Of a stretch of 64,000 nucleotides of DNA, positions 20,524-31,018 are shown piece after piece. The position numbers and the translations under genes are program-made. The notes below the pieces were generated by a model, which saw only the letters and a list, made by a program, of their open reading frames with translations, did not search any database and was not told the DNA's origin. How positions within the stretch are numbered: position 1 is the first letter of the stretch; every line of letters begins with the position of its first letter. The stretch lies in IMG/VR virus record IMGVR_UViG_3300020175_000005, positions 34,507 to 98,506 of that record, one strand, 5' to 3'. The stretch is from a virus.

Positions 20524-21876
20524 ATGGAAAAATTTATAGGTACTGAAACCCCATCTGAATTCATTAAACATAACTTGGTAGTAGGAATTCTTGCCAACAA
20601 TCGTATCAAAGACCAAATAGCTGACGGATACTTGAAAAACCTAACTGAATTTTATACTCAGGAATTTTTCCTAGGAGGACTAACAGTAATATACGGAGAA
20701 AATCCAGAAGACTTGATGGCTCAAACAAGCGAATTAGGAAAATCACATCTAGTTGCATTAAAGGTCGGTAATATCACTACATCTTTCCTAGACACTCTCA
20801 TTAACTTTTTTGAAAGGTTTTATGATGATGAAGTTTTAATTGGTCACATCTTAGACAGGGGAGATAGCTATTATGAGATACACCCGCAATTCTTCCTAAT
20901 AGATATTAAATGGTGGGAAAGTGTTGGAAAACCAATGTTTGGTATTCGTAGACACAACACTGAGTGGGAAGCTACTATTCCCGAAAGAAGCAATGACAAT
21001 TGGCATGACGATTACACTCCTAAATGGATTAAAAATGGATCAACAAAAAGAACATATACCTCCAAAGAGTATGGCTGGAACATTATATCTCTTGCATTAG
21101 ATAGTGGCAAAAAAGTAGGGGTATGGCAAAAGTATATGCGCGACAGTAAAAAATATCTTTATCCCGAAGTCGAAGAAGCATATGCAGGAAACATTAATGA
21201 AGTTCTTAGATTGTTAGATACATCAAAGTTTTTTTGCTCAAATACCGAAGACATTCATGTTAGTGGAAACATTGTTGCAGATACAGTAATATGTACCGCA
21301 GGTGGACCATCGCCAATTCTACATGCGTTTGCTTATAACATGAAATCTGGAGGAAACTTAGTAGTAGTAGATGTTAGTGAGCTTGCATTAAATATTATGC
21401 AAGATATGTTTGCTACATGGGATGGCAGAGATTACCATAGTTGGCTAGAAGAATATAGAAAAAACTCTTCAGCAATTCGTGGTCGTATGATAGCATTTGA
21501 AAGAGTGGAAAAGCAAAGTAAATGGATGGACGAAATTCCAGGTTTTGAAGAGTGGTATAATGAAGTTTGGCCGCATATCAATAAACAGTTCATTAAACAA
21601 AGTATTTTAGATGTTGACCAATTCACAAAACGCATTGATAGTTTTTTCCAACCTGATAATATAGTAGTAGTGCATACCAGTAATATTTTCCATTATTTGC
21701 CAACTTCATTGTTTTACAACTATAATATAAGATGGCATTTGTTTTGGAAACTAAAAAATTATGTAACGAGAAAACAAGCTACTGTTGAAGGTCTAAAAGT
21801 TATTCAGAGAATACTGTTTAATGATCATCATAGAAAGATAATGGAGATTTTACCATGGTACAAGAAGATAGACTAG
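20524..21876 (+). CDS. Hypothetical protein
   Basis: 450-aa ORF with AGGAGA RBS; one of the few plus-strand genes. Confidence 0.8.
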   Translation: MEKFIGTETPSEFIKHNLVVGILANNRIKDQIADGYLKNLTEFYTQEFFLGGLTVIYGENPEDLMAQTSELGKSHLVALKVGNITTSFLDTLINFFERFYDDEVLIGHILDRGDSYYEIHPQFFLIDIKWWESVGKPMFGIRRHNTEWEATIPERSNDNWHDDYTPKWIKNGSTKRTYTSKEYGWNIISLALDSGKKVGVWQKYMRDSKKYLYPEVEEAYAGNINEVLRLLDTSKFFCSNTEDIHVSGNIVADTVICTAGGPSPILHAFAYNMKSGGNLVVVDVSELALNIMQDMFATWDGRDYHSWLEEYRKNSSAIRGRMIAFERVEKQSKWMDEIPGFEEWYNEVWPHINKQFIKQSILDVDQFTKRIDSFFQPDNIVVVHTSNIFHYLPTSLFYNYNIRWHLFWKLKNYVTRKQATVEGLKVIQRILFNDHHRKIMEILPWYKKID

Positions 21877-22604
21877 CAAAAGTTTTAGATTTCATACAAG
21901 AATGCAAGCAACATAAACACTACGCATATATTGAGTCGCCGCCAGAAGCGTATAGTTATTGGAAAGAAATAAGACAAACACGACAGTTATATTTTAAATG
22001 GATCATGAAACACAGTAATTGTCCCAGTTTACGTTTGAGCATTGATATACCACACCGAGAAATACTAGCAGAAGCAGAAAATGCAAACGAATACTTCGTA
22101 AAGCATCGTGGAAATAATCATCCTGGCTGGGAGAGTATGACATTGCATGGCCAAGGAATACATTATACCGACAACATAAAACAATATCCAGATGCGCCAC
22201 AAGAATATAATTGGACTGAATTAACAAAATATTGTCCTATAACAACTGAGTGGTTCAAAGATGTGTGGCCTAATTCAGGCAATATGCAACGTGTTAGATT
22301 TATGATGCTGCGTCCTGGAGGTTGGATTACACCACATCAAGATTTAGATCGTCGAGAAATTAGTGCATTTAATATCGCTCTCAGCAATCCAGAAGGATGT
22401 GAATTTGCAATGGAAGATGCAAATATTATTCCTTGGAAACCAGGAGATGTTAGAGGGATTGATGTTGGGAGAAAGCACTGCGTATACAACGGAAGCAATC
22501 AGGATCGCATACATATGATTGTTCATGACAACTGGAGTCCAAACAAATATGACCTCGTTTGTCAAGCATATGATGACTTGTTAATAGAGAATAACACTTT
22601 GTAA
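21855..22604 (+). CDS. Aspartyl/asparaginyl beta-hydroxylase-family 2OG-Fe(II) oxygenase
   Basis: RVRFMMLRPGGWITPHQD...HCVYNGSNQDRIHMIV. Confidence 0.85.
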   Translation: MVQEDRLAKVLDFIQECKQHKHYAYIESPPEAYSYWKEIRQTRQLYFKWIMKHSNCPSLRLSIDIPHREILAEAENANEYFVKHRGNNHPGWESMTLHGQGIHYTDNIKQYPDAPQEYNWTELTKYCPITTEWFKDVWPNSGNMQRVRFMMLRPGGWITPHQDLDRREISAFNIALSNPEGCEFAMEDANIIPWKPGDVRGIDVGRKHCVYNGSNQDRIHMIVHDNWSPNKYDLVCQAYDDLLIENNTL

Positions 22605-22606
22605 TG

Positions 22607-22781
22607 TGCGACTATTCTGTTGCTAGGTCAGTCGCCAACCCCCACGTGCTTAAATTAAGCCGCTAATGCCATTTCTGGCGCTTTATTTGCGTTTGCAATT
22701 AAAAAGTTTGTTCGCGGTAACGGCGCTTACATCCCGGTAACTCCACTCTTCTATCCTGCCTGTCGATCCTATTTCGACCCC
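22607..22781 (-). ncRNA. ssrA: tmRNA coding piece of a permuted two-piece tmRNA; tag ANANKAPEMALAA*
   Basis: 5' end GGGGTCGAAATAGGATCGAC; tag ORF GCA AAC GCA AAT AAA GCG CCA GAA ATG GCA TTA GCG GCT TAA (22696-22655); terminal hairpin GCGACT...AGTCGC. Confidence 0.92.
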
Positions 22782-22793
22782 ATCATAAACACA

Positions 22794-23027
22794 CTATTCA
22801 AACCAAAGTAGGAAATCCATACTTCCTGTAATATTATATAATACGATTAGTATCATACAAAACCACAGTAGCCAAAATAACCAAAAGCCTAAAAATCTGT
22901 ACACCTTTTCCATAGGCAAATACTTTTCTAGAAGTGTAGTGATATCCCACACATATCTAAATTGTAGGAACCAACAAAACCATCTTACGTATTTGTTAGG
23001 TGTATTTTCTTTTGTTATCTTAGTCAT
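22794..23027 (-). CDS. Small Trp/Phe-rich membrane protein within the tmRNA intervening segment
   Basis: 77 aa, AGGGA RBS, C-terminal TM helix. Confidence 0.7.
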   Translation of the reverse strand: MTKITKENTPNKYVRWFCWFLQFRYVWDITTLLEKYLPMEKVYRFLGFWLFWLLWFCMILIVLYNITGSMDFLLWFE

Positions 23028-23045
23028 TATTCCCTAATGTGTTTA

Positions 23046-23105
23046 TGGTGGAGTCGCTGGGTACCGCCCCCAGGTCCAGTTCAGTCGTCAAATTGCTTCA
23101 ACGTT
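23046..23105 (-). ncRNA. ssrA: tmRNA acceptor piece (3' half with T-arm and CCA)
   Basis: ...GACCTGGGGGCGGTACCCAGCGACTCCACCA; CGACTCC pairs with GGGGTCG, giving the G3:U70 Ala determinant. Confidence 0.9.
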
Positions 23106-23112
23106 ACAATAC

Positions 23113-23143
23113 TATTTATAACATATGTATTCAGAGTTGTCAA
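23113..23143 (-). promoter_or_regulatory. Overlapping early (TTGACA-17-TATAAA) and late (TATAAATA) promoter for the tmRNA
   Basis: TTGACA actctgaatacatatgt TATAAATA. Confidence 0.8.
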
Positions 23144-23152
23144 GTATTAAAT

Positions 23153-23180
23153 AAAAAAAGGGAGCATTAAGCTCCCCTTT
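23153..23180 (-). terminator. Intrinsic terminator after the porin-like gene
   Basis: AAAGGGGAGC-TTAAT-GCTCCCCTTTTTTT. Confidence 0.85.
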
Positions 23181-23204
23181 AATAATAACAATGTTATTGT
23201 TAGA

Positions 23205-23597
23205 TTAGAATGCGAATGATGCTGTAAGTGTAATCTCACCACGTTCTTCTGCTTCTAAGTCATATGATGTCACTGCTTCGATTGTAAGATCGTCACGTAG
23301 TGCATATGAACCACCAAACTCTAGTACTGGAAGATGATCGAATTCGTCATCCATTGTAAAATCATTTGTGTTATCCCATACTGACAATTTAGTGCCTGTT
23401 GTTAGCTCTAGGCCGTCAACCTGTGGTACCACAAATGTTAGCTCTGGGTTGATTGTGATAATTGATGTATCAGCATCTACTTTACGTTCTGCTTTTACTT
23501 CTGTTTCTAGTGAGAAACCATTACCCAATTGTGTTTCAGCTTGTGCTGTGCCAGCCAAAAGTGTCGCTACAACTGTAGCTGCGAAAATATTTTTCAT
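23205..23597 (-). CDS. Small outer-membrane beta-barrel (porin-like) protein
   Basis: Signal peptide ending AQA, alternating amphipathic strands, C-terminal Phe (TLTASFAF). Confidence 0.75.
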   Translation of the reverse strand: MKNIFAATVVATLLAGTAQAETQLGNGFSLETEVKAERKVDADTSIITINPELTFVVPQVDGLELTTGTKLSVWDNTNDFTMDDEFDHLPVLEFGGSYALRDDLTIEAVTSYDLEAEERGEITLTASFAF

Positions 23598-23760
23598 TTT
23601 TGTAAATCCTTATTAATAATGAAAACCGGCGCAAATCAACGCCGGTGCGGTATTATTTAATACTATAATACTTATCACTAATATAAGCTATAATTAAAAT
23701 TTTGCAAGTTATTCAGGAATTAATTATATATGTGTGTTAATTATGTTACAAAATATATTT

Positions 23761-23837
23761 TGGTCTCGGTGGTAGGATTCGAACCTACGGTCTCCTGGTC
23801 CCAAACCAGGCGCTTTACCATACTAAGCTACACCGAG
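23761..23837 (-). tRNA. tRNA-Pro(UGG)
   Basis: Cloverleaf, anticodon TGG, encoded CCA. Confidence 0.95.
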
Positions 23838-23843
23838 TAAACT

Positions 23844-23917
23844 TGGCAAAGGTGAGGAGAATCGAACTCCTGCTTCTGGTTTTGGAGACCAGCGTGATAC
23901 CATTTCACTACACCCTC
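23844..23917 (-). tRNA. tRNA-Trp(CCA)
   Basis: Cloverleaf, CT-CCA-AA loop, encoded CCA. Confidence 0.95.
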
Positions 23918-24002
23918 ATTTTTTAAAAACACACTAACCTCAATCCTTTCGGGATCTATGTTCTGCAAAACTTCCCATTGCAGTGGGACATAGTGTGCTT
24001 AT

Positions 24003-24036
24003 AAAAAAGCCCCTAATGAATTAACACTAGGGGCTT
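24003..24036 (-). terminator. Intrinsic terminator (candidate attenuator) upstream of tRNA-Trp and tRNA-Pro
   Basis: AAGCCCCTAGTG-ttaatt-CATTAGGGGCTTTTTT. Confidence 0.9.
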
Positions 24037-24066
24037 GCTTAAAATAACTTTTGTTAAAAAGTCACG

Positions 24067-24126
24067 TCAAAACATTCCCCAATCTCTTGGCGGCCAACAA
24101 GTAATATATGTTGTAGTATTTGACAT
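24067..24126 (-). CDS. Candidate attenuator leader peptide MSNTTTYITCWPPRDWGMF
   Basis: AGAGAGA RBS; TGG CCG CCA...TGG control codons; lies between a promoter and a terminator. Confidence 0.7.
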   Translation of the reverse strand: MSNTTTYITCWPPRDWGMF

Positions 24127-24153
24127 GTTATTATCTCTCTTTGTTATACACTT

Positions 24154-24182
24154 AATATAGTACATGTTGTACCGAATGTCAA
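24154..24182 (-). promoter_or_regulatory. Sigma70-type promoter for the leader peptide and tRNA-Trp/Pro
   Basis: TTGACA-ttcggtacaacatgtac-TATATT (17-nt spacer). Confidence 0.85.
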
Positions 24183-24212
24183 GTGTTTTCTTAAAAATAT
24201 TTATCTTTTATA

Positions 24213-24289
24213 TGGTAGAGACAAGTGGACTCGAACCACCGACCTTTCGCTTATCAGGCGAATGCTCTAACCAACTGAGCTATGTCTCT
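24213..24289 (-). tRNA. tRNA-Ile(GAU)
   Basis: Cloverleaf, CT-GAT-AA loop, CCA. Confidence 0.95.
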
Positions 24290-24293
24290 ATAA

Positions 24294-24368
24294 TGGCTGG
24301 AACGATAGGACTCGAACCTATACTCTGCGCTACCAAAAAGCGATGCATTACCATTATGCTACGTTCCA
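24294..24368 (-). tRNA. tRNA-Gln(UUG)
   Basis: Cloverleaf, TT-TTG-GT loop, CCA. Confidence 0.9.
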
Positions 24369-24384
24369 TTACCATTATGATTTA

Positions 24385-24459
24385 TGGTACTCCCTAGGGG
24401 AATCGAACCCCTCTTTCCAGGTTGAAAACCTGGCGTCCTAACCGATAGACGAAGGGAGC
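24385..24459 (-). tRNA. tRNA-Glu(UUC)
   Basis: Cloverleaf, TT-TTC-AA loop, CCA. Confidence 0.95.
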
Positions 24460-24471
24460 GTACTATAAAAA

Positions 24472-24548
24472 TGGCGCGGTTGACGGGACTCGAACCCGCG
24501 ACCCCCGGCGTGACAGGCCGGTACTCTAACCAACTGAGCTACAACCGC
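24472..24548 (-). tRNA. tRNA-Asp(GUC)
   Basis: Cloverleaf, CT-GTC-AC loop, CCA; TTGACA-17-TACGTT promoter upstream. Confidence 0.95.
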
Positions 24549-24602
24549 TTTTAAACAATTTATAAACTAACGTAACACATTGTCTTTATTGTGTCAACAA
24601 AA

Positions 24603-24998
24603 TTATTTATCTTTTTTAATTAATGCACTTATATCATTTGTTGAACGTGCATGTTCTTGTCCAGTTAATTGATCAATTTCCACACTGCACTCTTTAACAC
24701 ATATAGCTGATGGATTGTCACTTTCCCAACCAGGATACCATATATAATCGTTATAAAACTCGTGGTTAACAATTTCGTCTAGTGTATAGTTATCCAAATT
24801 ATTCCAATTCGGATCTTGATCGTGTGCTGCGATATATTTTTCATCATTTAGTAAGCGAGGTGGTTCATTTGCCTCATTAGCGAATCTCTTATCCCAAGCA
24901 TTGGCAAAATAACAACAAGGCCAAAGTCTACCATCACTGGTAACTTCCCAATCTCTGGTAGAGCCGTTAATAGCCATACAATCAATCTTGCACTTCAT
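24603..24998 (-). CDS. SPASM/twitch-like Fe-S domain protein
   Basis: VTSDGRLWPCC...NNL..YTLDEIVN...ICVKEC. Confidence 0.75.
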   Translation of the reverse strand: MKCKIDCMAINGSTRDWEVTSDGRLWPCCYFANAWDKRFANEANEPPRLLNDEKYIAAHDQDPNWNNLDNYTLDEIVNHEFYNDYIWYPGWESDNPSAICVKECSVEIDQLTGQEHARSTNDISALIKKDK

Positions 24999-25686
24999 AA
25001 CCAGTATCCTGTAATAACTCGTAAACGTATTTTAAATTATTCTCTGATATCAATCCATATGATCGATTATTCAATTTAAGCCAGAGCCTTGCGTTTATTT
25101 GTTGTGCCATTTTAATAGCATCAGAGACTTGATGCCAATTCCATTCAAATATAATAAATTGCCAAGATCCGTGTCCTTGATTTGCAAACCATGCCGTCAT
25201 GTTATCCATTGCACGTTGCCAATCAACGCCTTCACGATACATCCAGTTAGTGTCGTGATCAGTGCCGTCAACAGCAAAATGTATATAGAGCTTCCTAGGA
25301 TATTTTTGTGATAGTTTATTATACCATTCAGGATTTCTTAATCCACCATTAGTATTGATACAAACGTTATCGGAATATTGCATAGCAACATCAATAAAGT
25401 CTTCAATTTGTGGATGCATCATTGGATCCCCAAGCTCTCCACAAAAAACAATTTCATTAATTTTTAATGACGTGTTTTCAAGTCTCTTTTTGAATACGTC
25501 CAGGTCCATATGCTGTAACTGAACCCAAGATTCTTTCTGGCCCGTGTCTTCGTTTGTCCTAGCACAGGATCGACATCTGGCTTGACAATGAGTAGTTATT
25601 GCAAAATCAAAGCTATGTTTAGTTATTTCAGTCACACCAAGATTCTTTTTTATCACCATAATATTCACGGGCAAAGTTATTTTCAA
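24982..25686 (-). CDS. Radical SAM protein
   Basis: CQARCRSC (CxxxCxxC), CGELGDP, INTNG and FAVDG motifs; true start may be slightly downstream. Confidence 0.9.
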   Translation of the reverse strand: MKITLPVNIMVIKKNLGVTEITKHSFDFAITTHCQARCRSCARTNEDTGQKESWVQLQHMDLDVFKKRLENTSLKINEIVFCGELGDPMMHPQIEDFIDVAMQYSDNVCINTNGGLRNPEWYNKLSQKYPRKLYIHFAVDGTDHDTNWMYREGVDWQRAMDNMTAWFANQGHGSWQFIIFEWNWHQVSDAIKMAQQINARLWLKLNNRSYGLISENNLKYVYELLQDTGYEVQD

Positions 25687-26077
25687 TTAGTAAAAGGCGT
25701 AAACTCACGCCATCAATAATAATATCACCTAATACTCTGCCGCCATATTTGTCCCAATTGTAAATTGCAACTTTGATAGTGGTAGCACTATCAATTGCAT
25801 CTTGTGTAAACTGACTTGCTGCTGCACCTAATATTTTTTCAGCATCACATTTGCCGCGCCAGGACTTTTCTGGAGTATCTACCCCGTATACTCGAATACT
25901 TAATTCCTGCTTTAGTGGCTCAGGCAAAAAATCAGCTTTGAATGCCACAGTGTCTCCGTCAATCACACGGGTGACTTCAAAATCATATTCTACCATATCT
26001 GGCATATTTTCTTCGGCATAAACACTAGCTGTGCTGATTAATACAAGCATTATACTTGTTATTAGATTCTTAAACAT
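25628..26077 (-). CDS. Secreted thermonuclease (SNase-like)
   Basis: Signal peptide, RVIDGDTV, IRVYGVDTPE and DKYGGRVLG. Start re-called at MFKNL. Confidence 0.88.
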   Translation of the reverse strand: MFKNLITSIMLVLISTASVYAEENMPDMVEYDFEVTRVIDGDTVAFKADFLPEPLKQELSIRVYGVDTPEKSWRGKCDAEKILGAAASQFTQDAIDSATTIKVAIYNWDKYGGRVLGDIIIDGVSLRLLLIENNFAREYYGDKKESWCD

Positions 26078-26087
26078 TGGGGCTTCC

Positions 26088-26996
26088 TTAGATATATTGC
26101 TTGAATATTCGATCAAACTGTTCTTTTTTACTATTGTATTTATCAATGTATATTTTTAAATTTTCTTCTAATACATTGCTATTACTTATTTCTAAATAAT
26201 CCAGAATATACTCTGGACGATCGAACCAATCATCACCAACAACAATATGACTTTTATTTAATTTTTGATAAGTTTTTATAGTATAATTGATATCATCTGC
26301 ATCATTATCTTCTTGAAACTTTTTAAACAGCCTATCTGAATCGTCAGCCAATGTAATATCATTTGATCCATTTAATTGAGCATGATACAAATCCCAATGT
26401 GCAAAATTAAGTTGCCACATATACTTCAAAAGACCAGAATCAATTTGCTTGTGCATGTAGTCGTGATACTGATCATACCATACCTTTTTCCATTCACCAA
26501 TGTTTGATCCATCCATAAGCATATGATCTTGCCACCACAAATTTGTGTGACTATCTACATGCTGGTGTGATATAGGGTTAAAGGCGTACTGGCTAATATA
26601 AAAAAACTGAAACTCTTGTGCTGAAGTATTGTTAATAATAGTTTTTTCAACATTTATTGCGGTGGAGGTATCTTTAAGGCATCCAAAATAATTACTCCAC
26701 ACGCATATATTATAATCGTTTTCAATTTCATTAAATGGTGAAACGCAATCACTTATTTGATCTTCGGCATCCAAATTTTCCATGCGGCGAAGAGATTCTT
26801 GATGCAAGTCGTAAACTCTTTTGGATACAATACTGTTACCCCTGTCTTCAATTATAATTCCACCAATGTTTTTATCATTATCTGATTGTCTCGATTCGAA
26901 TTCATATAACTGGGGACCAAATCTACTATCTGATGCTAGCCACCAGGCTATAGCAGGTGCGCTTCCATTTACTGAATTGTACACTGCTACTTTCAT
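26088..26996 (-). CDS. Hypothetical protein
   Basis: 302-aa ORF between the two tRNA clusters. Confidence 0.75.
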   Translation of the reverse strand: MKVAVYNSVNGSAPAIAWWLASDSRFGPQLYEFESRQSDNDKNIGGIIIEDRGNSIVSKRVYDLHQESLRRMENLDAEDQISDCVSPFNEIENDYNICVWSNYFGCLKDTSTAINVEKTIINNTSAQEFQFFYISQYAFNPISHQHVDSHTNLWWQDHMLMDGSNIGEWKKVWYDQYHDYMHKQIDSGLLKYMWQLNFAHWDLYHAQLNGSNDITLADDSDRLFKKFQEDNDADDINYTIKTYQKLNKSHIVVGDDWFDRPEYILDYLEISNSNVLEENLKIYIDKYNSKKEQFDRIFKQYI

Positions 26997-27013
26997 TTTT
27001 TAGTCCTTTTGTA

Positions 27014-27088
27014 TGGAGCGGGTGAAGAGATTCGAACTCTCGACATTCTCGTTGGCAACGAGATGCTCTACCACTGAGCTACACCCGC
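27014..27088 (-). tRNA. tRNA-Gly(GCC)
   Basis: Cloverleaf, TT-GCC-AA loop, CCA. Confidence 0.95.
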
Positions 27089-27092
27089 ATCG

Positions 27093-27168
27093 TGGTGGGT
27101 AATAAGAGACTTGAACTCCTGACATCCTGCGTGTAAAGCAGGCGCTCTACCAACTGAGCTAATCACCC
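27093..27168 (-). tRNA. tRNA-Val(UAC)
   Basis: Cloverleaf, TT-TAC-AC loop, CCA. Confidence 0.95.
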
Positions 27169-27173
27169 TATTA

Positions 27174-27261
27174 TGGCGGAGAGACAGGGATTCGAACCCT
27201 GGGAACCTCGCAGTTCAACGGTTTTCAAGACCGCCGCATTCGACCACTCTGCCACCTCTCC
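27174..27261 (-). tRNA. tRNA-Ser(UGA)
   Basis: Long variable arm, CT-TGA-AA loop, CCA. Confidence 0.95.
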
Positions 27262-27266
27262 TGTAT

Positions 27267-27342
27267 TGGCTCCTTGTGTTGGGCTCGAACCAACGACCTA
27301 CTGATTAACAGTCAGTTGCTCTACCAACTGAGCTAACAAGGA
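27267..27342 (-). tRNA. tRNA-Asn(GUU)
   Basis: Cloverleaf, CT-GTT-AA loop, CCA. Confidence 0.95.
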
Positions 27343-27347
27343 ATATT

Positions 27348-27551
27348 TTACCTAGTAAAGTATTTAGTTAATACTTCTATTTGATCATCATACTCTGCGA
27401 TGACTTTTAATTCTACTTCAATTGCTTCCAGGATATCGGAATGTTCTCCAATACCCACAGGGTTAGCTAAGTACACCTCAACATTTGCTTTGTGTTTAGC
27501 AATATGTCCTTGGGCATGCGCAATTGCAGCTTGGATTAGAGTCTCTCTCAT
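27348..27551 (-). CDS. Conserved small phage protein (VGIGEHSDI motif)
   Basis: 67 aa; motif typical of marine T4-like phages. Confidence 0.8.
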   Translation of the reverse strand: MRETLIQAAIAHAQGHIAKHKANVEVYLANPVGIGEHSDILEAIEVELKVIAEYDDQIEVLTKYFTR

Positions 27552-27725
27552 ATCATATCTTTCTGTGATTAAAATGAGAGCGTTTAACGTCTGCTCTCAT
27601 AAGACGGCACGGGTTTGCCGGCATCATTCATTCAATTATTTCAAAAGAGGAATGAAACTCTTTACAGTCCTGATACCTAACCGTAGGTATTGGCGTGCTT
27701 ATTAAGTAGCAACCCTTATTATAAT

Positions 27726-27801
27726 TGGTGGAGCGTATCGGGATCGAACCGATGACCCCCTGCTTGCAAAGCAGGTGCTCTCCCATCTGAGCTAACGCCC
27801 C
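27726..27801 (-). tRNA. tRNA-Ala(UGC)
   Basis: G3:U70 pair, TT-TGC-AA loop, CCA. Confidence 0.95.
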
Positions 27802-27924
27802 AATTAAAATTTACTCTTCTATGTCTTTCCTAACGTGTGTGGCTCGACACTGTCCATTTTAAATATTACCATATTGGTACGAGCTTCCTAATTACTATAT
27901 ATCTATTTATGATATTAGTGTGTA

Positions 27925-28165
27925 TATGCTAACAGTTCAACGCTTTCGCTCCACGCTTCGCACTAACGACAAACACCTGCCGGCATACTTGCATCGACCC
28001 TTTTGTTGTGACTGCGAACTCACTTCATCATATGGGACTTGGTAACCCATACTAGTTAGTGGCAAACTAACGTGTCCTTTAAACACCGAGCAGTTTTGGG
28101 ACCTACTCAGGTCATCCTGGGCACCATTTGCTCAATTGTTTAACAAGGGGAACAAAACCCTTTAA
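27925..28165 (-). ncRNA. Candidate ~240-nt structured ncRNA within the tRNA operon
   Basis: No ORF; serial hairpins GAGCA..TGCTC, GTGT..ACAC, GTTAGT..ACTAAC, TATGGG..CCCATA, GTGA..TCAC. Confidence 0.5.
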
Positions 28166-28167
28166 CT

Positions 28168-28252
28168 TGGTACGAGTAAGAGGACTTGAACCTCCACGCA
28201 TTGCTGCACTAGAACCTAAATCTAGCGTGTCTACCAATTCCACCATACTCGC
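28168..28252 (-). tRNA. tRNA-Leu(UAG)
   Basis: Long variable arm, TT-TAG-GT loop, CCA. Confidence 0.95.
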
Positions 28253-28255
28253 ACG

Positions 28256-28331
28256 TGGTGCCCCCACACGGACTCGAACCGCGGACCTACTGATTACAAA
28301 TCAGTTGCTCTACCAGCTGAGCTATAGGGGC
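28256..28331 (-). tRNA. tRNA-Thr(UGU)
   Basis: Cloverleaf, TT-TGT-AA loop, CCA. Confidence 0.95.
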
Positions 28332-28333
28332 AT

Positions 28334-28503
28334 TAAACTACTTACTAGATGCGCCCTCAGTATCTCCAATCTCTCCGCACGGCCTTATTGACATTGCCGC
28401 TCTAGTTCGACTGAAACTAGTAAAACTTGACATCTAAGCCTAACAGTTTTAGAGTTTTTAGCTGATCAACGCCTCTACACGGACGTATCTAGTAAGTAGT
28501 TTA
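28334..28503 (-). ncRNA. Candidate ~170-nt RNA closed by a 20-bp stem
   Basis: TAAACTACTTACTAGATACG ... CGCATCTAGTAAGTAGTTTA inverted repeat (one mismatch on the minus strand). Confidence 0.55.
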
Positions 28504-28558
28504 TTCTTATTCAATTGTCAAATAACGTGTTAATGTCTTTGCATCAACTTATGTATTC

Positions 28559-28587
28559 AATATAACGTATAATGATGTCGTTGTCAA
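28559..28587 (-). promoter_or_regulatory. Sigma70-type promoter of the tRNA operon, followed by a boxA-like element
   Basis: TTGACA-acgacatcattatacgt-TATATT; GTTATTTGACAA at 28515-28526. Confidence 0.75.
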
Positions 28588-28643
28588 CACCTTTTTTATT
28601 TTTCCTACGTTTTATTTATCCTTTTTATCTACGTAGATAATTA

Positions 28644-29168
28644 TTATTCTTGTATAGATGCAGATAGATTAATAATTACCGTTTGACCCTCATAAAATCT
28701 ACGAGTAGTTTTTTGTGTAATTGTGGCACCACCATATTCTACAGTTGTGGTCCAGCCGCTTGCTACACTTCGTGTCTCGTTTACGTGGACTGTGCGACAA
28801 CTTTCTTCCTGGCGGTAGCCAACAATTTCACGTCCGGGTTTTGCGCCTGATTTATCTGCACCAATAACACCACCTAATATTGCGCCGGCTGCTGCGCCGC
28901 CGTCGTTTCCACCAATTGCTTTACCGAGGATGCCGCCAATAATCATACCAGCTAGGGCGCCTTCACCAGCACTCCCTTTATTTTTAGAGTAGATAGGTAT
29001 ATCTTTAATAGTACATTTTGTAGATGGTACTTTAACCGTTTTGTTATGATAATGAGGCACGCTGCTCAATACTGTTCCACGAACAGTAGTAGTGTTGTCA
29101 TAACTTTCAGCATTGACGATAGATGTGGTCATCGCCACTGCTGTCATCGCTATCAAAAACTTTTTCAT
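28644..29168 (-). CDS. Glycine-zipper 2TM domain secreted protein (YcfJ-like)
   Basis: Signal peptide, GALAGMIIGGILGKAIGG...GAILGGVIG and CRTV motifs. Confidence 0.85.
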   Translation of the reverse strand: MKKFLIAMTAVAMTTSIVNAESYDNTTTVRGTVLSSVPHYHNKTVKVPSTKCTIKDIPIYSKNKGSAGEGALAGMIIGGILGKAIGGNDGGAAAGAILGGVIGADKSGAKPGREIVGYRQEESCRTVHVNETRSVASGWTTTVEYGGATITQKTTRRFYEGQTVIINLSASIQE

Positions 29169-29267
29169 CTTCTAACTTCCTTACTATATCTATTCCGAGT
29201 TCCCTATCTATATCAGACATGACTAGTTGCACACTGTGCATAAACCATTCATCTGATATATCATTTA

Positions 29268-29555
29268 TCATAGCAACTCTGGAAACATTCTCTTTACATA
29301 ATTATTGACAATTACCTGGGTATCTCGATCCACTTGAGATATATTGCCTCTGGGGGCATCAACGCCTTGTGTTCGAATTTCACCCTTGGCTACACGCAAA
29401 AGTTCACGCTTGTTTAGTTCTTGTACTTGATCTAAGGTGACTTGTCGTTGAGCGATTGCACTTATAATATATTCGGATACATCGCCGTGAGTCATTGGTA
29501 TTTCAATTTTCGCATTAATGCGTTTTATACCATCAGGATAAAGTTGAGCTCTCAT
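29268..29555 (-). CDS. Hypothetical protein
   Basis: 95 aa behind a TTGACA promoter at ~29620. Confidence 0.7.
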   Translation of the reverse strand: MRAQLYPDGIKRINAKIEIPMTHGDVSEYIISAIAQRQVTLDQVQELNKRELLRVAKGEIRTQGVDAPRGNISQVDRDTQVIVNNYVKRMFPELL

Positions 29556-29650
29556 GTTTCTACCATTGTTGTTTGTTTACATCTTATGTTCTTAATATAA
29601 CATAACCGTTCTAGATGTCAAGTAAAAGATGTTACTTTTTAAAAGATATC

Positions 29651-31018
29651 TTACCAAGTTCCTAAACTAGCACGTTTCCAAATATTGGTCACGCCGTCAT
29701 AGTCTGCTGTCGCAATATACATATGCTCACCATCAGTGGCAATTGCACCTTTTTTGTCACCAGCTTTGCCGATTGGACTAGATGGGATGTCTTCTTGCGC
29801 AATAGGGTTAGGATTGGTTAAATTCGTTGTGGCGTTAGATGGTGTATTAACTACTGTGCCTGTGGTTGCTATAGCTGTTGCCGCTGGCTGTGCAGATGGC
29901 TCTACTGGAGAACCAGCACTTACTGCTGAAGTCGCTGCATCTGGAACATCAGTATAACCAGTTACTCTCCCACAGTAGTCATATGTTGCTACACGTGTCA
30001 CGCCTTGTATTTCTGGATCAGTTTGATTGCGTAGCTTTGAAATTAGCTCTGGTTCTAGTATATAATCAAATATGCTTTTGCCAGATGCGTCAACTTCATA
30101 TGGCTCCAATTGATTAAATGCTGCTTGTAATCCAGCGCCCAGTCTCTGTGCTTGCGCCAGTGTCATTGTTGATGGATCAATAGCAACACCAACACCAGTG
30201 TGTATTCTATCCACTGGACTGAACACACTCCCGCCGTTGCCAGTTTCACCAGTTGTGCTATCAGGTTCGGTTCCCTTAAAGTTATTTTCAAACTCTATAA
30301 GGTTTTGCATATCATCAGCAAAGGCATCTATATGTGAAGCAAATCCATCAAGCACACTTTGGGGCGCATTAACTAGTTCCTGAATACTAAATGAGCCATC
30401 AGGCTGTCTCATTAGATCGGCAATGTCTCCCAGAGTTCCTCCAGTAAATATACCAGCACTAAATGAAGCACCTGCAGATCCGCCAGCACCTGGGAGGCTA
30501 ATACAGCCTCCGATATCACTGTTTGCGATTGTTCCCAGTTGGTCTAATACATTTTGTCCTGCGCCAGTAAAGCTACCAAATAAATCACCAAGTACATTGG
30601 GGATTGCTCTTGGCATAATTGGTGTTCCACAAAAATTAATCATATTGGCAATTGCGGCAAATTCAGCTATTGCATCATTCAACCTTCCAATAATATTTTC
30701 AATATTGGTGTGCGCAATGAACGAGTCAAGTGCAGCCTGTGCTTTATTGAGAGCGCCTTGTAGTTTAGCTAATGCTCCATTAATATTAATACCAATCTCA
30801 GCCAAAAGCCCTGCAATGTTAGCTTTAAGACAAATTTGCAAGTTAGGTAGTTTAATACCATTACCTGCCAATAAACTACAAATTAGTTCTCGCAAACTAA
30901 AACTAGTTTCGCCTTTTATAATTGCTCCTGCTGGCCCAATATCAATAGAATTTGGAATACTTACTGTGCGATTTAAATAATCATTAGCTGAAGATAAACC
31001 GCTTGTAAAGTCAGTCAT
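29651..31018 (-). CDS. Putative baseplate or virion structural protein
   Basis: Coupled to the PAAR gene; C-terminal GKAGD..G.IATD..HMYI...WKR motif found in tail proteins. Confidence 0.6.
   Translation of the reverse strand: MTDFTSGLSSANDYLNRTVSIPNSIDIGPAGAIIKGETSFSLRELICSLLAGNGIKLPNLQICLKANIAGLLAEIGININGALAKLQGALNKAQAALDSFIAHTNIENIIGRLNDAIAEFAAIANMINFCGTPIMPRAIPNVLGDLFGSFTGAGQNVLDQLGTIANSDIGGCISLPGAGGSAGASFSAGIFTGGTLGDIADLMRQPDGSFSIQELVNAPQSVLDGFASHIDAFADDMQNLIEFENNFKGTEPDSTTGETGNGGSVFSPVDRIHTGVGVAIDPSTMTLAQAQRLGAGLQAAFNQLEPYEVDASGKSIFDYILEPELISKLRNQTDPEIQGVTRVATYDYCGRVTGYTDVPDAATSAVSAGSPVEPSAQPAATAIATTGTVVNTPSNATTNLTNPNPIAQEDIPSSPIGKAGDKKGAIATDGEHMYIATADYDGVTNIWKRASLGTW

Follow-up and report, generated by a model that had tools for sequence, protein, structure and literature searches.

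A 64,000-nucleotide (nt) stretch of viral DNA (the window), taken from the IMG/VR record IMGVR_UViG_3300020175_000005, carries on its minus strand a compact element of about 140 nt, in which a promoter, a short leader open reading frame (ORF) and an intrinsic terminator are placed ahead of the genes for tRNA-Trp and tRNA-Pro. We consider it likely that this element is a ribosome-mediated leader-peptide transcription attenuator, which gates the phage tRNA-Trp and the co-transcribed tRNA-Pro. The phage would probably make tRNA-Trp, and tRNA-Pro with it, only when UGG is read slowly. We infer both the operation of such a switch in cells and the need of the phage for it from the sequence of the module and of its relatives.

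Every element that a preliminary description of this DNA had named was found on the minus strand where it had been placed. The sigma-70-type promoter, TTGACA-17-TATATT (24182–24154), matches the consensus at 11 of 12 positions and is followed by a purine-rich Shine-Dalgarno site of the GAGAGA type (about 24140–24131). Behind this site lies the leader ORF MSNTTTYITCWPPRDWGMF, which consists of 19 codons and a UGA (24126–24067, with the ATG at 24126 and the UGA at 24069–24067). Its codon 11, the putative regulatory UGG (Trp; 24096–24094), is in frame and located 17 nt ahead of a GGGG run; it is directly followed by the Pro codons CCG-CCA (24093–24088), and a second UGG (24081–24079) is found near the end of the ORF. 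A small hairpin, GUGACUUUU-UAAC-AAAAGUUAU (24065–24044), comes immediately after the stop codon, with UUUUA behind it. The intrinsic terminator (24036–24003) has a 12-bp stem (24036–24007), a 6-nt loop and a T6 tract, and is separated by a structured spacer from tRNA-Trp (anticodon CCA, 23917–23844), the regulated gene in our interpretation. tRNA-Pro (anticodon UGG, 23837–23761) starts 6 nt behind tRNA-Trp, and this small gap indicates that the two are co-transcribed. Promoter-like matches were not enriched in the region (16, vs 15.5 in shuffled sequences), so the case against chance rests on conservation; judged by the conservation described below, the module is not a chance arrangement.

In the mechanism that we propose, transcription would begin at the sigma-70-type promoter and a ribosome would load on the 19-codon leader. 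When Trp-tRNA is plentiful, the ribosome would reach the UGA and cover the G-run together with the 5′ half of the small hairpin; the 5′ arm of the terminator would be free, the terminator would form, and transcription would stop ahead of tRNA-Trp. When no ribosome is present, the leader would fold on itself by means of a start/stop helix, a hairpin within the ORF (hairpin A) and the pairing of CCGCCAA with UUGGGG, and the terminator would form as well. A ribosome stalled with UGG in its A site would cover CCGCCAA and stop just before the G-run, which starts 17 nt downstream. GGGGAAUGUUUUGA would then pair with UUUUAAGCAAGCCCC and occupy the 5′ arm of the terminator, and RNA polymerase would read through into tRNA-Trp and tRNA-Pro. 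Since the product would relieve the stall, the arrangement would amount to a negative feedback on the tRNA-Trp pool.

Relatives of the module were collected in two sets. The first was obtained with an exact 38-mer of the window tRNA-Trp and was therefore not selected on the leader; this 38-mer was found in 21 viral contigs, 17 of which carried the promoter-ORF-hairpin-terminator module directly upstream. The second was obtained with a motif derived from the end of the ORF and the small hairpin, which was detected in 61 viral contigs and at least 119 metagenome contigs. Twelve unrelated metagenome contigs that came from a loosened pattern, mostly of the termite-gut type and with no tRNA behind the motif, were discarded. 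After this removal, instances of the module were present in at least 167 marine viral or metagenomic contigs, which represent at least 79 unique sequences and at least 52 distinct peptides of 18–22 residues; all counts out of 79, 73 and 161 refer to the matches listed.

The first gene downstream of the module was tRNA-Trp(CCA) in 160 of the 161 instances with enough downstream DNA. In the single exception a tRNA-Cys was inserted and then followed by tRNA-Trp, and five further instances ended at the contig edge. The tRNAs behind tRNA-Trp varied freely (Pro, Cys, Gly, His, Tyr, Met, Ala, Lys, Gln, Arg, Ser, Asp, Glu or none), and an identical leader peptide may precede different tRNA sets, indicating that the constant link is to tRNA-Trp. 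The upstream ORF, its UGG and the terminator were kept in 161 of 161 instances, and the earlier proposal of a trpL-type architecture tied to tRNA-Trp is thereby borne out. The same linkage bears on the idea that the module is an independent small gene, whose 19-aa peptide or roughly 140-nt RNA has a role in trans and merely lies beside tRNA-Trp. The promoter, ORF and terminator do constitute a complete transcription unit, and a precedent is provided by the Sinorhizobium trpL attenuator, the RNA and peptide of which have functions in trans according to a passage of PMC7968998. However, the adjacency to tRNA-Trp is absolute, half of the relatives are without the spacer or a possible tRNA promoter, and the peptide is variable outside UGG; we regard an independent gene as very unlikely. 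A role in trans could exist alongside attenuation.

A promoter of the form TTGAC-N17-19-TAnnnT was located at the same place in 72 of the 79 unique relatives, and a Shine-Dalgarno-like site in 68. Between the terminator and tRNA-Trp of the window (23918–24006), no promoter-like site was seen. Of 73 unique relatives, 36 have a tRNA-Trp that starts no more than 10 nt behind the T-tract, which leaves no room for a promoter, and in these relatives tRNA-Trp would be made only by read-through. These results support the interpretation given in the preliminary description. A candidate internal promoter, TTGACG…TATTTT (24070–24041), lies upstream of the terminator and, if it drove tRNA-Trp, would make the upstream ORF irrelevant. 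It matches the consensus at 9 of 12 positions, with a spacing of 16–18 nt in 63 of the 79 unique relatives. However, its transcripts would have their 5′ ends at the base of the terminator stem, and would thus keep the hairpin and the U-tract and terminate. In addition, the site reads CTAGTG, with a spacing of 11–12 nt, in 11 unique relatives (the UAG-stop lineages) in which the rest of the module is intact, and the ORF and its UGG would be left unexplained. This promoter was rejected as an extremely improbable source of tRNA-Trp, because it is unable to bypass the terminator and is missing in the 11 unique sequences.

The evidence that the leader is translated comes from the pattern of variation in the ORF. 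The ORF was open in 79 of 79 unique relatives, and a single in-frame UGG was kept in every complete relative. The distance from UGG to GGG was 14, 17, 20 or 23 nt, that is, in steps of three, in 74 of the 79; it was 15 or 18 nt in four sequences that are shifted by one base, and the remaining sequence (L115) also fits the in-frame spacing pattern. The spacing was never shorter than 14 nt. When UGG occupies its A site, a ribosome should extend about 12–13 nt beyond this codon, so that the G-run would be positioned just beyond the leading edge of a UGG-stalled ribosome. Indels in the ORF were multiples of three or were otherwise rescued by a second UGA: the leaders shifted by one base stay open and stop four bases on, at a UGA inside the conserved GUGAC, which indicates that the base of the small hairpin doubles as a back-up stop codon. 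One-base indels after the Pro codons were observed in the leader ORFs of L048, L097, L101, L119, L143 and L193. The GGG, which is absent from the search motif, never changed, whether the codons that contain it spell W-G, G-G, R-G or E-G, thereby indicating a constraint at the nucleotide (RNA) level. Outside UGG, the leader peptide varied widely.

Folding of the free leader RNA gave a structure more stable than those of shuffled sequences (z = −3.8), with five elements. The start/stop helix (P0) joins the start-codon region (5′ strand, 24124–24116) to the stop-codon region (24073–24066). Hairpin A (24113–24095) lies within the ORF, and its 3′ arm terminates on the UG of UGG. In the third element, the CCNCC/G-run helix, segment 1, CCGCCAA (24093–24087), is paired with segment 2, UUGGGG (24082–24077), which can pair instead with the 5′ arm of the terminator. 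The small hairpin and the terminator complete the fold. The 79 sequences were aligned to a covariance model built on this free-RNA fold; in the resulting alignment, which was fitted and thus leans towards the model, 91.6% of cells were paired and 15 pairs had changed on both sides. None of 500 shuffles reached any of five measures, and slid partners gave values of 31–53%. The result also held on an unfitted MAFFT alignment of 32 sequences. Among the individual helices, the terminator was 96% paired, with changes on both sides in 9 of its 12 pairs, and P0 was 81% paired, with double changes in 2 pairs. Compensatory changes were found in 3 of the 5 pairs of hairpin A, the CCNCC/GGGG helix was paired in 92% of cells, and the base of the small-hairpin stem was invariant in relatives.

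The alternative structure, the predicted antiterminator (24080–24030), pairs the G-run and the AUGU-stop region with UUUUA-linker-CCCC and occupies the 5′ arm of the terminator. It was the minimum-free-energy fold with the 3′ arm of the terminator left out or with a ribosome on UGG. The pairing of GGGG-AA-UGUUU with AAGCA-AG-CCCC around the UGAC...GUUA hairpin, which the preliminary description had drawn, was recovered as this fold in RNA without the 3′ arm. Its energy in the window was −18.3 kcal/mol, vs −19.5 kcal/mol for the terminator. Withholding the 3′ arm mimics the moment of decision, and under this treatment all 34 variants folded into one long irregular hairpin; the energies of these antiterminators ranged from −14 to −25 kcal/mol, vs −15 to −22 kcal/mol for the terminators. 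The antiterminator was also returned as the consensus by RNAalifold on the unfitted alignment, and its columns were paired in 93% of cells, vs 41–69% when slid. The small hairpin would form the apex of the antiterminator, and it is possible that it is a pause hairpin too. The conservation of AAGUUAUUUUA was stronger than pairing requires; our guess is that this sequence serves as a pause signal that synchronises polymerase and ribosome.

Several observations weigh against attenuation by this module. When the full leader was folded at equilibrium, the terminator won even with a ribosome on UGG, and in truncated RNA the antiterminator formed even without a ribosome. The switch would therefore have to depend on kinetics. 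Covariation in the antiterminator was no better than in shuffles, because its columns hardly vary, an invariance that is partly imposed by the search motif. There is only a single regulatory codon, from which modest sensitivity is expected in the model of PMC1183508. Trp accounts for 1.5% of the residues in the phage ORFs, an ordinary share, and a Trp-rich proteome was accordingly rejected as the reason for the device. Furthermore, a blastn search with the leader and spacer gave no match among 50,697 GenBank phage records.

Two of these points would be expected if the promoter, ORF and terminator acted as a constitutive damper, which fixes a low level of tRNA-Trp through leaky read-through and senses nothing: no structure was more stable than the terminator in any equilibrium fold, and the antiterminator is without covariation. 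We consider such a damper improbable, as it leaves unexplained why a translated ORF with indels of three nucleotides is conserved, why the in-frame UGG and the GGG are invariant, why a minimum distance from UGG to the G-run is kept, and why, among the about a dozen tRNA species in the clusters, the association is exclusively with tRNA-Trp.

The distribution of the module was examined further in cultured phages and in bacteria. A covariance model (R1) gave no match in Pseudomonas phage PA5oct or Sinorhizobium phage Phosso, which are the nearest cultured phages by terminase. The module was not found in bacterial genomes, when one genome was searched for each of 185,579 prokaryote species; three prokaryote contigs that contained the motif were rejected as chance matches, since all three failed model R1.

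The preliminary description had taken CCG-CCA for control codons of tRNA-Pro, as UGG is for tRNA-Trp. The link between control codon and downstream tRNA was upheld for UGG and tRNA-Trp. It was not supported for Pro codons and tRNA-Pro: Pro after UGG is near-universal with or without a tRNA-Pro behind. Matches at positions +1/+2 of UGG numbered 26, vs 25.8 expected (P = 0.57), a Fisher test of Pro codons against downstream tRNA-Pro gave P = 0.17, and phylogenetically independent pairs gave 0.4 in the same direction vs 0.8 in the opposite one. Pairing with the G-run is a better explanation for the CCNCC stretch. This explanation is consistent with a lineage that has UGCUCU after UGG, in which the context of the G-run has changed in step to GAGGGCA; here the leader can still pair with itself and can still form an antiterminator, of 18 bp and in a shifted register. 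Where the spacing is 14 nt, the G-run would lie under a ribosome that pauses on the Pro codons. The 17-nt spacing of the window would just leave the G-run clear of a ribosome paused on CCG, and a minor effect of Pro is possible.

The near-universal Pro codons also raise the question of whether the peptide itself, …YIT-C-W-P-P…, slows the ribosome at W-P-P in the manner of EF-P-dependent polyproline or TnaC/SecM-type arrest, in which case the module would be a nascent-peptide or translation-capacity sensor that reports elongation capacity, EF-P activity or free tryptophan and not the supply of Trp-tRNA. Motifs of the W-P-P type are known stalling sequences, and most of the 52 peptides have W-P-P or W-P at the invariant Trp; the Pro codons differ in their third base (CCA, CCG, CCU) while Pro itself is kept. 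However, several lineages that keep the module have WCS, WPL, WPS, WTP, WCP or WWS instead of W-P-P, and the conservation of the N-terminal part is at least partly due to RNA helices with compensatory changes. Moreover, with 14-nt spacing, a ribosome with its A site on the second or third codon past UGG would cover the G-run, which would favour termination and not read-through. Stalling by the peptide is thus an unlikely basis for the switch.

Returning to attenuation at UGG, we noted that the codon immediately 5′ of UGG, which specifies Cys, Tyr, Gly or Asp, tends to match the second tRNA. All 5 combinations with tRNA-Gly downstream have Gly just before Trp, and the sole set with tRNA-Asp has Asp there; Cys is present within W−2 to W+1 in 19 of 20 combinations with tRNA-Cys, and Tyr in 3 of 4 with tRNA-Tyr. 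At position −1 alone, 26 of 75 were matches, vs 11.4 expected, and none of 5000 shuffles reached this number in a test that ignores relatedness. With a tree built without the codons under test, the independent pairs in the same direction were about 3.9 for Cys, 1.9 for Gly, 2.1 for Tyr and 1.0 for His, with 0 in the opposite direction. No single amino acid was significant. The pooled result, about 9 to 0 from pairs that are not strictly independent, is suggestive. No matching codon near UGG was found for the Met, Ala, Ser, Gln, Arg and Glu tRNAs, and many leaders with Cys-Trp, that of the window included, have no tRNA-Cys behind.

These matches led us to a tentative extension, which is plausible but falls short of probable: the module may be a programmable and partly multivalent gauge of the tRNA pool, in which UGG is fixed and the preceding codon is rewritten, so that marine giant phages switch on spares for those host tRNAs that are limiting. 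If this is true, the tRNA genes would serve regulated counter-defence, for example after cleavage by an anticodon nuclease, and not constitutive codon compensation. Sensing of starvation or of an anticodon nuclease, as had been put forward in the preliminary description, may be the purpose of the module.

The arrangement was compared with known systems. It shares with trpL and with the his, phe, leu, thr and ilv attenuators (the class modelled in PMC1183508) a promoter-proximal short translated ORF that carries the regulatory codon, predicted alternative 1:2, 2:3 and 3:4 pairings, an intrinsic terminator and, in the proposed mechanism, a decision made by the position of the ribosome. That class controls amino-acid biosynthesis genes and uses tandem codons, whereas the phage-encoded module would control tRNA genes through a single UGG, and its stop codon overlaps the 5′ strand of the antiterminator. 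No match to the Rfam family Trp_leader (RF00513) was obtained at E ≤ 1 in 21000–30000, so no homology is indicated. T-boxes are similar in that they respond to the state of a single tRNA species by switching between a terminator and an antiterminator. However, they bind uncharged tRNA directly and without translation, whereas the phage module has a conserved translated ORF; no T-box match in Rfam was obtained at E ≤ 1 in the same interval. The pheST (phenylalanyl-tRNA synthetase) operon of Escherichia coli has a leader-peptide attenuator, and there, too, attenuation acts on a component of decoding for the amino acid of the regulatory codons themselves. That system is cellular and controls a synthetase, whereas the phage module would control the tRNA itself.

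The nearest functional analogue in print is the trn operon (L-array) of Anabaena PCC 7120, a spare set of tRNAs that is silent until translation is impaired (PMC8421152). It is induced by translational stress via promoter repeats and not by attenuation, and 'attenuat', 'leader' and 'terminator' were not found in the text of PMC8421152. The Anabaena response is global and cellular, whereas that of the phage-encoded module would be codon-specific. Full-text literature searches yielded no published description of leader-peptide attenuation of tRNA genes. The reasons why phages carry tRNA genes have been under debate for decades, with codon compensation and the replacement of tRNAs destroyed by host defence as the proposals (PMC10264068 and PMC11555353). 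If our interpretation is true, at least some phage tRNAs are spares regulated by demand, the logic of trp-type attenuation extends from amino-acid supply to tRNA supply, and the module offers a simple cis element with which the idea of demand-regulated phage tRNAs can be tested. Being compact and codon-specific, it is also a candidate sensor of decoding speed.

The spacer between the terminator and tRNA-Trp (24002–23918, minus strand, about 90 nt) is itself structured (z = −3.3 vs shuffles). It consists of a 10-bp closing stem and three hairpins in a cloverleaf-like arrangement, with loops too small for a tRNA. Compensatory changes were found in 9 of its 28 pairs, it is absent in about half of the relatives, and no Rfam match was obtained for it. 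In the spacer of L048, a change of the loop CUGCAA to CUGCAU occurs together with a change of UUGCAG to AUGCAG, which suggests a loop-loop contact. One possibility is that the spacer RNA is a processing signal. In L053 (12982–13053) and also in L080, the spacer is replaced by a second mini-ORF, MTDSEYWRWMKSQVE, which has its own Shine-Dalgarno site, contains two Trp codons and is positioned between the terminator and tRNA-Trp.

The IMG/VR record of which the window is a part is 98.5 kb long, and its CheckV completeness of 27% implies a full genome of roughly 300–400 kb. The window has a G+C content of about 38% and codes for a ribonucleotide reductase, DnaB-type helicases and a large terminase, which shares 54.5% identity with its counterpart in the Pseudomonas jumbo phage PA5oct. 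On the minus strand, 13 tRNA genes are located at 23761–28331. Model R1 matched only the single module described here within the window, and no terminator-like site was present upstream of the other tRNA blocks on the minus strand.

Directly downstream of the tRNA cluster, a permuted two-piece transfer-messenger RNA (tmRNA) gene is found on the minus strand at 22605–23147. It was identified by the Rfam models alpha_tmRNA (108 bits) and tmRNA_permuted (95 bits), whereas ARAGORN did not report it in the window; in the relative L003, ARAGORN calls a permuted tmRNA with the tag ANDNRAPAMAIAA. The permuted tmRNA hints at an alphaproteobacterial host or donor. The tRNA cluster also contains, at 24603–25686 on the minus strand, the gene for a radical-SAM protein of 234 aa and, overlapping it, that for a Cys-rich protein of 131 aa. 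Distant relatives show the pair in synteny with tRNA genes; our guess is that the two act in tRNA modification. Synteny partners reached through this radical-SAM gene were set aside, as these relatives are too distant to have the attenuator module. Two non-coding stretches of about 230–360 nt lie inside the tRNA cluster on the minus strand, at 27802–28167 and 28332–28558, the latter behind a TTGACA-17-TATATT promoter (28587–28559). They gave no tRNA, terminator or Rfam match and may encode small RNAs. In the distant relative L002 (7079–7191), a perfect TTGACA-17-TATAAT promoter is located immediately ahead of tRNA-Glu with no leader, which shows that this phage group uses host-type promoters for tRNA genes.

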